NCBI GenBank assembly: GCA_963775465.1
Contig: CAVZIW010000010.1
Coordinates: 1 to 64,000 of the forward strand
Reading direction: 5' to 3'
DNA from: Candidatus Bathyarchaeota archaeon
GTDB taxonomy: Archaea; Thermoproteota; Bathyarchaeia; Bathyarchaeales; Bathycorpusculaceae
Length of the DNA stretch: 64,000 nucleotides
Under the pieces are notes generated by a model, which was given only the letters and a program-made list of their open reading frames with translations, searched no databases and had not been told where the DNA came from. Both the position numbers and the translations under genes were made by a program. Positions 13,845 through 63,895 of this stretch are shown here, in pieces. Position 1 is the first letter of the stretch, and every line of letters begins with the position of its first letter.

Positions 13845-14194
13845 TTATTATTCACCATTAGACATATGTATACTTTTTTTTGTATTGATTGTGCATTTAT
13901 CTCAAACAACTATATAAAAGTATCCGTTTGAAAACAAACAAAGCAATTTAGTAAATGGATGTTTGAAAAAATCAATGAATATGCTACAAGTGTCCACATT
14001 TGACTAACAAACTTTCCAAAATATCAAAATTTATCCATAAAATAACCAAATTATTGACCAATTACCAATAAAATCATTAAATTCTTCCAAAGTAGTCAAC
14101 TAACTAATCAAAAAAACAAGTTCGCTTTCTCTTCTTACGCGTAAAACTTATAACGCTACAATCGCAATCTTTGCGAACAGAAGGTCCACAGCAA

Positions 14195-15100
14195 ATGAAA
14201 TTTGGCGCATATACTTTTCAACCGCAAAAAACCCAGGGATTCGACTTCCAAGTTCTCCGTGTAAAACCAGAAACCGGCCTCAGAATAAAACCAGAATCCG
14301 ACATGTACAGCAACATTGCAGTATTTGCTGACACTTTGACTGTACAAAACCATCCTGACTGGGTTTCTCAGTCACCACTTGGTCCTGCTAAATTTGGAAA
14401 CAACAACTTCAATATTTATTGGAGTATGGTGTGCCCTACACAGCCAGATTACAGAGAAGAACAATTAAAATACATCGCAGAATTGGACAGACAGTCACCA
14501 GGTATATGGCTAAATAGCCAATACTTCGCTGACCACGACCATTGCACCTGCTCTCGGTGCCAAGAAAAGTGGCACAAAAGTGGCTTAAGCTGGCTTGAAT
14601 GGCGCAAAAAAGAAGTAAATGATTATATGGCTCAAATACGCGGCACAGTCAAAAAAGAACTCGTATTCTGCCTTCAACCAGATCCAGTAAGCTCATATGA
14701 ACGCTACGGCGTAGATTTTAGCGATTTTGCGAAATACGCCGACAAATTCTGTGTTGTGATGTTTAGCAAAAACTATGCAACACCATGGTATTGGGAAATG
14801 TTGGTGAGAGGCTTCAAGAAACTTTTAAGCAAACCTTTCTATGTGAGTTTGTACGTTTATGGTCCCGGCGACAACCCAAAAGATGTGCCCTTACCATCCG
14901 AACTGATGACAGTAACAGTCAGATGTGCTCGAGCAGGTGCCAATGGTTTTCTCTACTTAACTGACGGCAATAGCCAAATGGTAGATTTCCAAAAAGCTGC
15001 ATTCACAGACACAGCGATGCTTTCACGTCTTAGAACGTTCGGCGGAACACCGGTTCAACAGGTTATTGACAGGTTTGAAGATTGGAAAAAAATTCTTTAG
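14195..15100 (+). CDS. Putative glycoside hydrolase-like TIM-barrel protein with CxCxxC motif
   Basis: VCPTQPDYRE, GIWLN, HCTCSRC, WLEWRK, GVDFSDFAKYAD resemble GHL/DUF187-type barrels; ATG at 14195. Confidence 0.55.
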   Translation: MKFGAYTFQPQKTQGFDFQVLRVKPETGLRIKPESDMYSNIAVFADTLTVQNHPDWVSQSPLGPAKFGNNNFNIYWSMVCPTQPDYREEQLKYIAELDRQSPGIWLNSQYFADHDHCTCSRCQEKWHKSGLSWLEWRKKEVNDYMAQIRGTVKKELVFCLQPDPVSSYERYGVDFSDFAKYADKFCVVMFSKNYATPWYWEMLVRGFKKLLSKPFYVSLYVYGPGDNPKDVPLPSELMTVTVRCARAGANGFLYLTDGNSQMVDFQKAAFTDTAMLSRLRTFGGTPVQQVIDRFEDWKKIL

Positions 15101-15172: not shown

Positions 15173-16450
15173 TTACGTTTTTCTATATCTCAACAAAGCC
15201 GCAAACCCGCCCAACTCTGCAAGCTTTACTTTTTCTTCAGACTCAGCAGATATAACCTCAACTTTAGCATCGGTTTGCGACGCAGCATCTTCTAAAACAT
15301 CAATTATGTCTTTCTCTTCAATTTGATATTCAAGTGCAGTACATTTTTCGCATGGGCTTGAAGTAACCTTCTTCATGGTTTGAACATCATTTTTGTTCAA
15401 TATCACTGCTTTTATTTGTCCACACCTTTTGCAAACAGTTTCATATTCAATCATTTCCGAACTGTCCGTTGAAAGCACAACTTCAGCTTCGCCTTTCTTT
15501 AGCGCTTCCAAAACTGAATCTAAGCCATAAGTTACCAAACCGTTTTGTTTAGCTAATTCAGCGAGAACCCGTTGCACAGCTCTTTTCTCTTCAGGCACAC
15601 ACATTTCTCTTATCGTTACGGATGATTTGCTGAGAACTTCCCTAACGCCTTTTTCCCCCGTAAATTGTGTATCAACCATATCCAATAGTGAATTTTTAAG
15701 TTCGTAATGGAGATAATTGCCCTCAACAAACTCATTTTTGGTTTTTCCCGGACCTCCGACGATTAAAACTGTAACTTGATTATTTTCCAAAAACAGTTTC
15801 GCTGCATGTTCGGCAATCCGACGGAAAAAGAAGTTGACTTCCATATCACGTTCACGTTCATACCGCCTTTGACTTTGCCCTCCTTTTTTTGTCTTCCCCG
15901 GAATTCCTGAAGTGATGTCTCTGCTAAGTTCCAGTTGATCTGCAATAAATACTCCAAAGCCAGCCTCTTTTGAATCTAAAGCTATTAATCCCACAATTTT
16001 TTGGTCTCGAAGCATTTCTCTTAGCGGTTCAAGCTGGAAATGGCTGTCAACTTTGTAGACGTATTTTCCGATAGGTTTTGGTGGAACAATTTGTTCAAAA
16101 ATTGTAACTTCTCCTTCAATATTGTTTATGGCAGTTCCCATGAACATTGCAAGTCCGTTTTCTGGGATCTCTTTTTGTTGTTTAAGGTGATGAGTTATGC
16201 TTTTGAGGTTTTCTTTAAAGTGCTTTTTTTCGTTATCGAATCTCATATCGGTGGAATCAGATTCTCCTTTAAGAAAGGCGATAACATCATCGATTGATGT
16301 CTTTGGTGGAATGTAAAGTGAAACAAAATCCATCTCTCTGCCTTGTTGGTTGGATAAATATGCTATGAGCTTTCTTAGTTTGTGTAGTTTCATTGAATTA
16401 GAGGTAGCTTCATGGCATGCGTGAAAATGGTTTATTTTTTTATCAATCAA
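15173..16450 (-). CDS. Peptide chain release factor aRF1-family protein, divergent paralogue
   Basis: VSLYIPP, GLAMF, KKGGQSQRRYER, GGPGKTK, YGLDSV, LGGFAALLRY; start may be ATG 16393. Confidence 0.88.
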   Translation of the reverse strand: MIDKKINHFHACHEATSNSMKLHKLRKLIAYLSNQQGREMDFVSLYIPPKTSIDDVIAFLKGESDSTDMRFDNEKKHFKENLKSITHHLKQQKEIPENGLAMFMGTAINNIEGEVTIFEQIVPPKPIGKYVYKVDSHFQLEPLREMLRDQKIVGLIALDSKEAGFGVFIADQLELSRDITSGIPGKTKKGGQSQRRYERERDMEVNFFFRRIAEHAAKLFLENNQVTVLIVGGPGKTKNEFVEGNYLHYELKNSLLDMVDTQFTGEKGVREVLSKSSVTIREMCVPEEKRAVQRVLAELAKQNGLVTYGLDSVLEALKKGEAEVVLSTDSSEMIEYETVCKRCGQIKAVILNKNDVQTMKKVTSSPCEKCTALEYQIEEKDIIDVLEDAASQTDAKVEVISAESEEKVKLAELGGFAALLRYRKT

Positions 16451-16534
16451 TTAATGCGCCATCACATTGGTTATGGTCTTAAATGATTTATCAATTCCTT
16501 AAGATATACGTCTTATAATTCTTCTTTGGATTAA

Positions 16535-16621
16535 TGGCGCGGGATGTGGGAATTGAACCCACGCGGCCTTTCGACCACAGACTTAGCAGGCCTGCCCCAT
16601 ACCAGGCTTGGGGAATCCCGC
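16535..16621 (-). tRNA. tRNA-Ser(GCT) with encoded CCA
   Basis: Acceptor GCGGGAT/ATCCCGC, discriminator G, CCA; anticodon arm CAGGC-CTGCTAA-GTCTG; long variable arm; T-arm GTGGG-TTCAATT-CCCAC. Confidence 0.93.
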
Positions 16622-50986: not shown

Positions 50987-53053
50987 TTAGGTTGCTCTTG
51001 GATTTATAGCGCCTTTGGTGTAGGGAATGAACTCGCGAATTTGCTCAATAGAGACCTTGCCTGCTTTTTCCCGTTGGTCTTTTGACAACTTGAGCGTTAG
51101 TGTCTTGAGAGTCTGCTTAAGCAAGTCTTTCCCCATGTTATCTCCAGGACTTATGATAATATATGATTTTGTTTTGGCTTTAACAGCATCTATCGGACCG
51201 CCAACAAAAACGGTTTCTTCGCCTACAACCAGGCCGACTGCGACTCGAAGTGGTGTATTCCTATACCAATTACGTTTCCCAGAAACAAAGAACGCTCCAT
51301 GAGGCACAGACTCGCCAGATGGACCACTTTTACTGAGCTGATCGACTTTAACCCAGTAAACATCCACCGATCCTGCATTCTCACGCCAAGCCCTAGAAAA
51401 AGACGCTGCGAATTCACTAGCTTCTTTTAGGGTTTGTTCGCCGATCGAGTTTCCTTCTGCTTTGACGACAACAAACGGCGCTCCTGTGATTTCTGCGTGG
51501 AAAACAACATCTTCCTGTGAGGTGTACTTCTTGACCAAAACTTCGTTACTGACAGTATCTTTGCCCGCAACCACCAACAAACCCTCCGATGAAAAAAACC
51601 AACGGAATTTTTCATACCACTCCCTGTTTGCCATTTCTTCTTTACGTTTAGAGAGGGCTTCCATAATTTCAGCAGGTTTGAGACTTTTCATGTGCTCCGC
51701 TTCGGCTAACTCGCGCTCAGCTCTTGATAGTTTGCGTTTCGAATCTTGCAGAGCTGACAGGGCACCCTGAGCTTTTTCTTTTGCGTGTTTGCCACGTTCA
51801 TAATATCTATTCGCGTTATCAAAAAGCGAATCCCGCAAGTTAAAGCTAAAATGAAAATTGTCTAAATCTAGGTTTAAGGCCAGGTTTTTGCCGTCAAACG
51901 ATTCAACATATATTGCAGGAATCTTGCCGGCTTTTTTAGCTGCCATAACGGTTGAGATAATTTTGTCCCAGTCGTGTCCCTTCTGGTTTGCTTTTATAAG
52001 TTGTTCTTGGAACGTTTGAAACATATTAAAATGGGCGTAGATTGTATCGCCGATCTGCTTGTCCTTCTCAGATTTCTTCTGATCCTCTACGATAGATTTC
52101 TCTTGTTCAGCTACCACTCGTTTGAGGCGTTGGGTTTCCTGTTTTAATTTGTCAGTCTCGATGCTTCCAGCTGCTTTCTCAGCAACAGTTACTCGCAAAT
52201 AAAACTCATCCAAAGCTTGATTGAAAGATTCGTAAACCTGAACTTTCAAACCCTCATAACGTTTGAGTTTGAAAGGGACGGCATCTAAATAGTCACCGTT
52301 CTTATCCAAGATTATACTCGGCTCAAACTTACACTCCAAAACAGGCAAAAGCAAGCTTTGAAGCGCCTCAAAAATCGCTTTAACTTCATCAACGGTCAAA
52401 TCATTGCTGGGTTTAGTTTTTTCTACTTGTGCCCTAAGCAAAAGCTCTTCAGCGTAAACTCCACCAATACCCAAAGACCTTGCTAATCCTCGAACAACTT
52501 CTACATTGGCAGTGCTTTTTAAGATATCTTGGAGTTCGAGCATGGATACTTTGAAGGGGTTTTTTCCGCTAGAAGGTGGAAGCACAAGAGTTACTTTGTG
52601 CAAGATGTCGCGGTCTCTCATCTTCTTAAATTCCAAAGCTTGGATGATTGCGTCTTTCTCGTTTGTCAAGATAATGTTACCGTCGCCGAAAAGTTCCACC
52701 ACTAACTTGAGCATTCCAATTTTGGTTTCAAAGGTAATTGTTACGATTCTCTCAAATCCAGCTTGCTCAATTCCTCTTAACCACGAATCACGCAGATACT
52801 TGCGCATCATCATGCAGAAAGCTGGGGGCTCAGCGGGGCTTTCTTCCGCATAGCTTGTCGAGTGGAGCCTTCTGCCTGCTTCAACCACCAGTCTTATGGG
52901 TGGATTGTCGGTTTTGTGCAGTTTAAAGATTAAAGTTTTTTCTCCGAATTGGTAGATGTTATTCACTCTGGAATTAGGGATTAGCGTTTTTAGTTCTTCA
53001 GTTGCTGCAGCTATATCAAAGCTTGTAAATTCTTTTTTACGCAACTCTTGCAC
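50987..53053 (-). CDS. rqcH: Ribosome quality-control factor RqcH/Rqc2 (NEMF family)
   Basis: TSFDI, F.MMMRKYL, ELFGDGNIIL, coiled coil, NANRYYE, WYEKFRWF, NEVLVKKY, FHAEITGAP. Confidence 0.93.
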   Translation of the reverse strand: MQELRKKEFTSFDIAAATEELKTLIPNSRVNNIYQFGEKTLIFKLHKTDNPPIRLVVEAGRRLHSTSYAEESPAEPPAFCMMMRKYLRDSWLRGIEQAGFERIVTITFETKIGMLKLVVELFGDGNIILTNEKDAIIQALEFKKMRDRDILHKVTLVLPPSSGKNPFKVSMLELQDILKSTANVEVVRGLARSLGIGGVYAEELLLRAQVEKTKPSNDLTVDEVKAIFEALQSLLLPVLECKFEPSIILDKNGDYLDAVPFKLKRYEGLKVQVYESFNQALDEFYLRVTVAEKAAGSIETDKLKQETQRLKRVVAEQEKSIVEDQKKSEKDKQIGDTIYAHFNMFQTFQEQLIKANQKGHDWDKIISTVMAAKKAGKIPAIYVESFDGKNLALNLDLDNFHFSFNLRDSLFDNANRYYERGKHAKEKAQGALSALQDSKRKLSRAERELAEAEHMKSLKPAEIMEALSKRKEEMANREWYEKFRWFFSSEGLLVVAGKDTVSNEVLVKKYTSQEDVVFHAEITGAPFVVVKAEGNSIGEQTLKEASEFAASFSRAWRENAGSVDVYWVKVDQLSKSGPSGESVPHGAFFVSGKRNWYRNTPLRVAVGLVVGEETVFVGGPIDAVKAKTKSYIIISPGDNMGKDLLKQTLKTLTLKLSKDQREKAGKVSIEQIREFIPYTKGAINPRAT

Positions 53054-62590: not shown

Positions 62591-63895
62591 ATGAGCAAAA
62601 GCGATAAACCCCACTTAAACCTTATAATCATGGGGCACGTTGATGCCGGAAAATCAACATCAACTGGGCACCTACTATACTTAGCAGGAGCAATTGACGA
62701 AAGGACAATCAAATCGTATCAAGACGAAGCAGAAAAAATGGGCAAAGGCACATTTGCATTTGCTTGGGTCCTTGACAACCTCAAAGAAGAACGTGAGCGA
62801 GGTGTTACAATTGACCTTAGATTCCTGCAGTTCCAAACCAAGAAATATAATTACACGGTAATTGATGCACCTGGTCACAGAGACTTCGTCAAGAACATGA
62901 TTACAGGCGCAAGTCAAGCAGATGCCGCAGTTCTGTTTGTTTCATCCAAAAAAGGTGAATTCGAAGCAGGTATCGGCGCAGGTGGACAAACAAGAGAACA
63001 TGCATTCTTAGGTTTCACTTTGGGTATCCGACAAGTTATCGTTGCAATTAATAAGATGGACGATATCTCATCTAACTACAGCCAAGAAAGATACGACGAA
63101 ATTAAGAATGAAGTTTCTAGAATGCTCAGAATGGTTGGCTATAAAGTTGATAAAATTCACTTTGTTCCATGTTCAGGATGGACAGGCGAAAACCTGCTTA
63201 AGAAAAGCGATAAAATGCCATGGTATACAGGTCCAACCCTCATGGAAGCATTTGATATGTTGGAAATACCAAGCAAACCAACTAACAAGCCCCTTCGTGT
63301 TCCAGTTCAAGATGTTTACACTATCACAGGTATCGGTACGGTTCCAGTGGGCAGAGTAGAAACAGGCACACTCAAGCCAGGAGCAAAAATCATCTTTATG
63401 CCATCAAACAAGACAGCTGAAGTTAAATCAATCGAAATGCACCACACTAGCATTCCAATCGCAGAGCCAGGCGACAACATTGGCATGAACGTTAGAGGAA
63501 TCGCAAAAAATGACGTTCACCGAGGAGATGTCGCTGGTCCAGCTGAAAACCCACCAACAGTTGCAAAAGAATTCATCGGACAAATCATTGTTATCTATCA
63601 CCCAACAGCTATCGCCGCAGGATACACACCAGTCCTCCACTATCATACAGGACAAATCGCAGTTAAATTCACTGAACTCATAAAGAAAATTGACCCACGC
63701 ACTGGACAAGTATCCGAAGAGCACCCAAGCTACCTCAAAACAGGAGATGCTGCTTGGGTACGAATGGAACCACTTCACCCCATCGCAATCGAAACCTTCA
63801 CTGATTTCGCAGAACTCGGTAGATTTGCAATTCGAGACATGGGCACAACTGTTGCAGCAGGCGCCGTTAAAGAAATAACTAAAAAGGGATTATAA
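62591..63895 (+). CDS. tuf: Translation elongation factor aEF-1 alpha
   Basis: [45 protein letters not shown]. Confidence 0.98.

Follow-up and report, generated by a model that had tools for sequence, protein, structure and literature searches.

An accessory aRF1 paralogue of one Bathyarchaeia family keeps an unchanging Gly-Gly loop beside a drifting decoding loop and a replaceable GGQ glutamine

We analysed a window of 64,000 nucleotides from a Candidatus Bathyarchaeota archaeon (assembly GCA_963775465.1, contig CAVZIW010000010.1, positions 1 to 64,000), in which the minus strand carries, at 15173..16450, an intact open reading frame (ORF) of 425 aa that belongs to the aRF1 (archaeal release factor) family, its TTG start codon coming immediately behind a TAA. 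A first-pass annotation, made from the sequence alone, had described this gene as an aRF1 paralogue that keeps GGQ and has lost the stop-codon decoding motifs. The motif strings on which that description relied (GGQ, CKRC...CEKC, GREMD, DSTDMRF and YKVDSHF) were all confirmed by translating the exact coordinates, and the gene is organised as follows.

15173..16450, minus strand: coding sequence of the aRF1 paralogue, 425 aa, TTG start, stop codon at 15173-15175
16400..16450, minus strand: N-terminal extension, residues 1-17, LIDKKINHFHACHEATS, without counterpart in canonical aRF1
16001..16399, minus strand: N domain, residues 18-150, with the eRF1 N-domain fold (Pfam eRF1_1, structural superposition)
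16328..16342, minus strand: GREMD at the position of the GTS loop (alignments and exact translation)
16238..16258, minus strand: DSTDMRF at the position of TASNIKS (alignments and exact translation), the most variable stretch of the clade
16037..16057, minus strand: YKVDSHF at the position of YxCxxxF, Val replacing Cys, Phe138 being invariant in the clade
15596..16000, minus strand: M domain, residues 151-285 (Pfam eRF1_2, 111.2 bits)
15875..15883, minus strand: GGQ within SGIPGKTKKGGQSQRRYERER (exact translation), the Gly pair being invariant in the clade and the Gln replaceable
15176..15595, minus strand: C domain, residues 286-425 (Pfam eRF1_3, 61.3 bits)
15341-15433, minus strand: Zn knuckle CKRC...CEKC, inside the C domain

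The three Pfam domains eRF1_1 (26.6 bits, cut-off 23.8), eRF1_2 and eRF1_3 all scored above their cut-offs, and the NCBIfam equivalog of aRF1, TIGR03676, gave 350.6 bits with a cut-off of 234.7. The protein failed the pelota profile TIGR00111 (70.4 bits, cut-off 177.65) and the Balon/Rv2629 profile NF052289 (26.9 bits, cut-off 320). The matches to baeRF family 10 / acVLRF1 (PF18854 and PF18859, 48.5 and 46.1 bits) overlap the stretch matched by eRF1_2 at 111.2 bits and were rejected as weaker matches of related families. The positions of GTS, TASNIKS and YxCxxxF were placed by alignment to the aRF1 of PDB 4af1, to the canonical aRF1 of the same genome and to 42 other aRF1 sequences, most of which present NIK[SD] and YxCxxxF. 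The NIKS loop and YxCxxxF, which are hallmarks of class I aRF1/eRF1, are both missing from the window protein, while GGQ is present. A search of 5.8 billion protein clusters, of which the best 120 matches were listed, returned relatives 58-93% identical to the window protein, and the motif losses are not due to chance, because the same substitution pattern is common to 120/120 of them. The four cysteine residues of the Zn knuckle, C340, C343, C367 and C370, do not vary in the clade alignment (A1).

An AlphaFold2 model based on an alignment of 73 diverse rows reached a pLDDT of 83 and a pTM of 0.65, residues 1-13 alone being disordered; a model from a shallow alignment of 26 close relatives (pLDDT 42) was set aside. 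Comparison with the PDB by Foldseek placed the aRF1 structure 4af1 at the top (E 7e-37, TM 0.71/0.74), followed by ribosome-bound eRF1, with Balon at ranks 20-36 and Pelota also lower than aRF1/eRF1. The modelled N domain superposes on that of human eRF1 (2llx) with a TM of 0.86 and a root-mean-square deviation of 1.5 Å. The predicted structure thus retains the three-domain aRF1 fold.

The reading frame of the N-terminal extension is open and conserved in 89/89 loci of the clade, with the consensus EKxxHFHxCQxATTNS, and canonical aRF1 has no such extension. Cys12 is found in 86/86 distinct loci and Phe9 in 85/86, and the ratio of nonsynonymous to synonymous substitution rates (dN/dS) of the extension is 0.34-0.38. 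The window gene must use the TTG at 16450 as its start; the only other choice, the ATG of Met20, would cost it the conserved Phe9 and Cys12. A relative of 90% identity (P0003) has ATG at the very position of this TTG. The TAA at 16451-16453 corresponds to a Lys codon in the two closest relatives, L044 and L045 (AHKLIDQK), and the relatives of the window gene could initiate further upstream, at a GTG.

We then considered the remaining translation genes of the genome, an assembly of 2.42 Mb in 15 contigs that is 92% complete. A canonical aRF1 is encoded on contig C12 (TIGR03676, 516.5 bits) with TASNIKS, YRCDSRF and GGQ, and it shares 33% identity with the paralogue of the window. A NIKS-bearing factor elsewhere in the genome had been named by the first-pass annotation as a point to check, and its presence also means that the paralogue is not the only aRF1 of this organism. 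A pelota gene lies on contig C1. The only aEF1A of the genome is in the window (62591-63895, plus strand, 672.8 bits), 46 kb from the paralogue, and an RqcH/NFACT_N homologue (51632-53023, minus strand, a 693-aa open frame, 234.9 bits) is 35 kb away from it. The suggested partnership with RqcH and aEF1A found no backing in this arrangement: both are present, but control archaea also have RqcH and nothing in it is specific to the paralogue. A predicted complex of the paralogue with the aEF1A of the window scored 0.00, a value that, as controls were not run, weighs neither for nor against binding. The three stop codons are normally used (TAA 556, TGA 223 and TAG 222 in 1001 ATG-initiated ORFs of at least 250 aa), ARAGORN detected no suppressor tRNA among 37 tRNAs, and the search of the genome for PylS gave nothing above the cut-off. 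There is no sign of an altered genetic code in this genome.

The distribution of the paralogue is restricted. In 301 sampled Bathyarchaeia genomes the matches were bimodal: 9 genomes, including that of the window, gave matches of 49-100% identity, and the rest, at 39% or less, corresponded to the canonical aRF1. All 9 carriers belong to one family (f1), and the paralogue was found in 0/252 sampled genomes of the other Bathyarchaeia families. A census of 332 genomes of the family identified 95 carriers (55/169 when only high-quality genomes are counted), distributed over 10/70 genera and comprising 74/119 of the other genomes of the window's genus; 8 genomes have two copies, and broken copies are few (G372 with 10 stops and G407 with 2 stops). 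The paralogue is, then, an accessory aRF1 family confined to one family of Bathyarchaeia, present beside the canonical aRF1, pelota and a single aEF1A. Several of the 120 listed relatives are named 'Candidatus Bathyarchaeia archaeon' aRF-1, and public records label paralogue genes 'peptide chain release factor aRF-1'. We found in the literature no description of a Bathyarchaeia aRF1 paralogue family, of its decoding-loop loss or of its labile Gln, in a search in which 'aRF1' is confounded with the Arf1 GTPase; the supplement of PMC12626013 may already list these genomes as two-copy. According to that 2025 survey, which gives no functional analysis of them, two aRF1 copies occur in 4.3% of archaeal genomes (n = 81).

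Selection was measured on 89 loci (9 genomes and 80 metagenome contigs), all 89 with open frames and 86 of them distinct in DNA; the metagenomes were scanned with KGG[QS]SQRRY and a second motif, patterns that bias the set toward Q and S at residue 192. Pooled over the 1507 pairs whose dS falls between 0.05 and 1, the Nei-Gojobori (NG86) dN/dS of the clade is 0.20, with 0.21, 0.17 and 0.20 for the N, M and C domains, respectively, and the window gene differs from its nearest relative by a dN of 0.034 and a dS of 0.211. The clade is under purifying selection, and dozens of positions of its alignment are invariant. It evolves rapidly nonetheless: between the genome of the window and four genomes of the same genus the paralogue shares 50-63% identity and the canonical aRF1 84-88%. 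The paralogue evolves about 3 times faster than the canonical factor. The possibility, raised at the outset, of a singleton evolving neutrally does not hold for a clade found in 95/332 genomes with a dN/dS of 0.20. The NIKS-less clade is real and selected, as the first-pass annotation had anticipated, but the invariant GGQ that it expected alongside was not found, the Gln being replaced in 49/86 loci and in 47/121 proteins, with only the Gly pair invariant.

The constraint is unevenly distributed over the N domain. Residues 62-76, equivalent to the NIKS loop, have a dN/dS of 0.61 compared to 0.21 for the remainder of the domain, and sites 62, 67, 68 and 69, in or next to this loop, are among the 6 most changed of the 425 sites on the clade tree. 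The loop differs even among close relatives. The Lys of NIKS (site 70) is found in 69/86 loci and the Ser (site 71) in 59/86, the copy of the window having R and F at these positions. At the YxCxxxF site, Val replaces Cys in 78/86 loci and the Tyr and Phe are kept; E63, Y132 and F138 are retained in the clade. Considering this pattern of substitutions, a loop that drifts in this way would not read a fixed codon. The alternative initially offered, a codon-independent or altered-specificity factor, is thereby narrowed: the unconstrained loop fits codon-independent action, but it fits poorly with a new fixed specificity.

The GGQ loop of the M domain shows the opposite behaviour except at one residue. 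Positions 181, 182, 185, 186, 189-191, 193-196, 199 and 201, which include both Gly residues, have zero changes in the clade, giving the frozen motif GKxxKGG-x-SQRRYERxR. Residue 192, the Gln of GGQ, is Q in 37, S in 36, W in 7, and E, M and A in 2 each of the 86 distinct loci; in the window protein and the 120 listed matches it is Q in 74, S in 28, E in 7, W in 6, M in 5 and A in 1; Pro was found in 0 of both sets. On the tree, residue 192 underwent 15 changes or more, of which at least 9 were switches between Q and non-Q; the subclade of the window has Q. The codons at this site are connected by single-base steps, CAG (Q), GAG (E), GCG (A), TCG (S) and TGG (W), a chain that follows from the genetic code. 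Pro never appears, though CCR is one step from codons of Q, S and A. The Gln site of one genome (G397) was checked for an in-frame TAG, and there is none there. Pairs of sequences sharing the residue gave dN/dS values of 0.19 (Q-Q), 0.19 (S-S) and 0.16 (W-W), and the loop without site 192 gave 0.05-0.07 in all residue-192 groups. Selection is equally strong in the members without Gln. The argument that the protein keeps GGQ and is hence a hydrolase holds for the motif in the copy of the window, but it is weakened in a clade in which the Gln can be replaced with undiminished selection.

The nearest sequences outside the clade, at 41-44% identity, are NIKS-bearing canonical aRF1 of Nitrososphaerales/Nitrososphaeria (named records), and clustering at 50% reduced the clade to one full-length representative (P0025) and fragments. 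In the maximum-likelihood tree (IQ-TREE, 55 rows, LG+C20 PMSF) the paralogue clade has an SH-aLRT support of 100 and a stem of 0.8, and it is the sister of the Nitrososphaeria canonical aRF1, with a joint support of 100, this pair standing apart from the Bathyarchaeia canonical aRF1. The topology joining the clade to the Bathyarchaeia canonical aRF1 was not rejected in the approximately unbiased (AU) test (ΔlnL 26.6, p 0.147). We claim no donor because of this p value of 0.147; an ancient transfer and a duplication within the lineage followed by acceleration both stand.

Several other aRF1 sequences of the collection have unusual features at the same sites. Many canonical aRF1 representatives, among them P0122, P0125, P0132, P0145, P0147, P0154 and P0159, have an intein exactly between the Q and the S of GGQ-S, with the junction KGGQ/C...HN/SARRY and, in these seven, lengths of 538 to 1452 aa; P0122 and P0125 group with the Nitrososphaeria-type aRF1 in the tree, and P0145 and P0147 have KGGW before the intein. 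In P0123, P0126 and P0131 an insert is located in the N domain rather than at the GGQ site. P0210, P0221, P0225 and P0261 form a long-branch aRF1-like clade without NIKS and with GGQ, P0137, P0157, P0173 and P0211 combine NIKS or NIKL with GGW or GGF, and P0161, which groups with the Bathyarchaeia canonical aRF1, has SEIKS, YNYRRNHKF and GGE.

The surroundings of the gene were compared in 9 genomes, over 8 kb on each side of the paralogue (less at contig ends). No neighbour gene family is common to 3 or more of the 9 loci. Pfam annotation of 78 neighbouring ORFs at these loci returned housekeeping and miscellaneous genes, with no mobile-element hallmarks; nor did any operon tie the paralogue to genes of hibernation or stress. 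As a control, the canonical aRF1 locus in 6 of the same genomes has 9 families in at least 3 loci (aRF1 itself and antisense shadow ORFs being counted), among them about 5 real neighbours conserved in 4-5 of the 6 loci. We consider the paralogue to be positionally mobile, because it has no common neighbours while the canonical locus is syntenic. PADLOC and PHROGs gave no match at the locus, and the IMG/VR collection contains just 3 distant partial aRF1/eRF1 relatives, with 31-45% identity over part of the protein, on contigs of 61-156 kb (L204-L206), which are filed as viral and could belong to large viruses or be cellular sequences placed there by mistake. An origin from a mobile element, a virus or a defence system was rejected on these data: housekeeping neighbours, blank PADLOC and PHROGs searches and only these three relatives in IMG/VR. 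An ORF of 309 aa (14171-15100, plus strand) is convergent on the paralogue and belongs to no Pfam, PADLOC or PHROGs family; the sole hint of a common neighbourhood is that one other genome has a homologue of it (L040, 3269-4192) some 4 kb away from the paralogue. On the other side of the gene lies the following feature.

16535-16621, minus strand: tRNA-Ser(GCU), 84 nt upstream of the paralogue on the same strand

The adjacency of this tRNA had been pointed out in the first-pass annotation. It is correct in position and strand, but it is kept in only 2/22 of the other loci checked, those of L044 and L045, the two closest relatives of the window, and has no functional support; it was seen in 0/8 other genome loci and in 0/12 other metagenome loci scanned. 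A linkage to tRNA-Ser was rejected, since it is limited to the window, L044 and L045, and the tRNA is a neighbour by position only.

Bringing these observations together, we propose that the paralogue probably works on the ribosome but does not read stop codons. The best reading, to which we attach a probability of roughly 0.42, is that of a stop-codon-independent release or rescue factor, with hydrolysis itself a plausible prediction. Such a protein would still enter the ribosomal A site; given the almost free drift of the NIKS-equivalent loop, its N domain would no longer read the stop codon, and the GG loop of the M domain would still dock in the peptidyl-transferase centre (PTC), because GKxxKGG-x-SQRRYERxR never changes. 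Bacterial release factors stay active in vitro when the Gln is substituted by residues other than Pro. The likeliest chemistry would be the release of peptidyl-tRNA by the backbone of the loop, the Gln side chain not being needed, and this Gln-independent release appears to fit best because the GG pair is invariant, any residue with a backbone N-H is tolerated and Pro is never seen. Mutation of either Gly is reported to abolish release, owing to a special backbone geometry, the Gln side chain having a packing role (PMC5799190), the backbone amide of the GGQ Gln has been proposed as the catalyst of hydrolysis (PMC6742477), and GGQ mutations are described as lowering efficiency or admitting other nucleophiles (PMC9589212, citing Shaw & Green 2007). 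The use of the paralogue may be limited to particular conditions.

Several points weigh against a release factor of this kind. All release-type factors that we know to hydrolyse keep the Gln; that W, M and E freely take its place here may just as well be a sign that catalysis was abandoned, and the geometry of the loop could by itself account for the absence of Pro at site 192. The canonical aRF1 accompanies the paralogue in 8 of the 9 carriers first checked, so that an 'always auxiliary' role is not universal: in G175 (94% complete, about 40 contigs) we found the paralogue and pelota and no canonical aRF1. This absence is probably an assembly gap; if it is real, the paralogue can terminate. 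Another carrier, G193, has an extra aRF1-like copy with 8 stops (G193:C5:532009-533232) and a canonical-type copy with 2 stops (G193:C2:6748-7875), and since this assembly has only 6 contigs, indel errors in it are possible. Among 20 public runs listed, each labelled or guessed RNA run held about 5% of the sampled words, and the four metatranscriptomes that were mapped cover the tRNA-Ser only, with flanks that differ from those of the window, which points to other organisms and is silent on the expression of the gene.

The main rival is a non-catalytic occupant of the A site, which would plug the PTC without hydrolysis, like Pelota, in subunit splitting with ABCE1, or like Balon, in hibernation, with a delivery of the EF-Tu/aEF1A type. 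We take it seriously, even if we judge it somewhat unlikely. The dispensable Gln speaks for it, replaced as it is in 49/86 loci, with bulky W and M included and selection undiminished, as does the unconstrained NIKS loop. Balon structures also appear among the fold matches, from rank 20 onward. Balon is described as an aeRF1-type protein without NIKS and GGQ that binds the A site independently of mRNA (PMC10901736), and aeRF1 relatives without Gln are regarded by Burroughs and Aravind as catalytically inactive (PMC6514570). However, nothing of the GGQ loop is left in Pelota and Balon, whereas in the paralogue the Gly pair and about 13 flanking positions are unchanged, and the invariance of Gly has been explained in print by the backbone geometry needed for release (PMC5799190). 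The genome, moreover, already has Pelota, and at the 9 loci examined no operon connects the paralogue with hibernation or stress genes.

A terminator of altered specificity, acting on a restricted or different set of codons, like the factors of ciliates with variant codes or those at one time postulated for users of pyrrolysine, could account for the retention of the NIKS Lys in 69/86 and of the Ser in 59/86 loci, for E63, Y132 and F138 and for the intact N-domain fold. It seems improbable to us, as the NIKS loop is the least constrained part and varies among close relatives, which is unexpected for a reader of fixed codons, and the window copy has R and F at the Lys and Ser positions; all three stops are in normal use, with no suppressor tRNA among 37 and no PylS above the cut-off, and the PNAS 2025 survey saw no relation between aRF1 copy number and the use of pyrrolysine (PMC12626013). 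A decaying or function-less duplicate would agree with the fast evolution (50-63% compared to 84-88% identity within the genus), the patchy distribution and the few broken copies in G372 and G407, but it is largely refuted by a dN/dS of about 0.20 over 1507 pairs in all three domains, by 89/89 open extracted loci and by dozens of invariant positions, and we give it next to no credit. The stop-codon-independent release or rescue factor therefore stays our preferred reading. It has a bolder form, which we consider distinctly unlikely, in which a naturally Gln-free GG-loop factor would carry out PTC chemistry, that is, codon-free release of nascent chains, possibly with a relaxed choice of nucleophile, and would perhaps be recruited to damaged or blocked ribosomes like PrfH; horizontal spread, multiple copies and the rapid turnover of the decoding loop would then reflect a conflict, e.g. 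with viruses or translation-targeting toxins. We know of no codon-independent peptide-release factor in archaea. If this bolder form were true, the paralogue would be the first, and a natural experiment on the purpose of a universally conserved Gln.

The paralogue can be compared with several known systems. With canonical aRF1 (TIGR03676; PDB 4af1 and 3agk) it shares the three-domain fold, the GG loop, the Zn knuckle of the C domain, the C-terminal motif GGxAAxLR[YF] and a score above the family cut-off. It differs by the replacement of NIKS, of the YxCxxxF Cys and of the GTS-site residues, with an unconstrained NIKS loop, by a GGQ Gln that is replaceable in the clade, by the 17-residue N-terminal extension with its invariant Cys and by an accessory, non-syntenic distribution. 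Pelota/Dom34 is, as proposed for the paralogue, an A-site factor of the aeRF1 superfamily that acts without a stop codon, and both are present in the genome; Pelota, which splits ribosomes without hydrolysis, combines an Sm-like N domain with the lack of a GGQ loop, whereas the paralogue has the eRF1 N-domain fold and a GG loop. ArfB/ICT1 and PrfH embody the same concept, a release-factor paralogue that acts at the PTC without reading a codon; ArfB/ICT1 are codon-independent GGQ factors of bacteria and organelles, and these factors have the unrelated bacterial release-factor fold, PrfH included, and keep the Gln. PrfH has been described as an unusual release factor (PMC1586002). Balon/Rv2629 is likewise aeRF1-like and without NIKS, binding the A site independently of mRNA (PMC10901736), but it has no GG loop and instead an HP motif and a lasso loop, whereas the GG loop of the paralogue is conserved and its match to NF052289 is weak (26.9 bits). 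As with aRF1-2 of Methanosarcina, a second aRF1 homologue is kept beside an active one; in M. barkeri only one copy of the pair is reported to function in termination in vitro (Alkalaeva et al. 2009, as cited in PMC2943090 and PMC12626013). Methanosarcina belongs to a different phylum; the position of the Bathyarchaeia clade, which branches with Thermoproteota aRF1s, suggests an independent origin.

For annotation, these results carry a warning, as these paralogue genes, though labelled 'peptide chain release factor aRF-1', very probably do not terminate at stop codons. They describe a selected, widespread aRF1 paralogue in which the Gly-Gly loop and its surroundings are fixed, while variation is allowed in the decoding loop and at the 'universal' catalytic Gln, and they make testable the question of what the GGQ glutamine is needed for, as well as that of how Bathyarchaeia, which are abundant archaea of sediment and peat, handle stalled or idle ribosomes.

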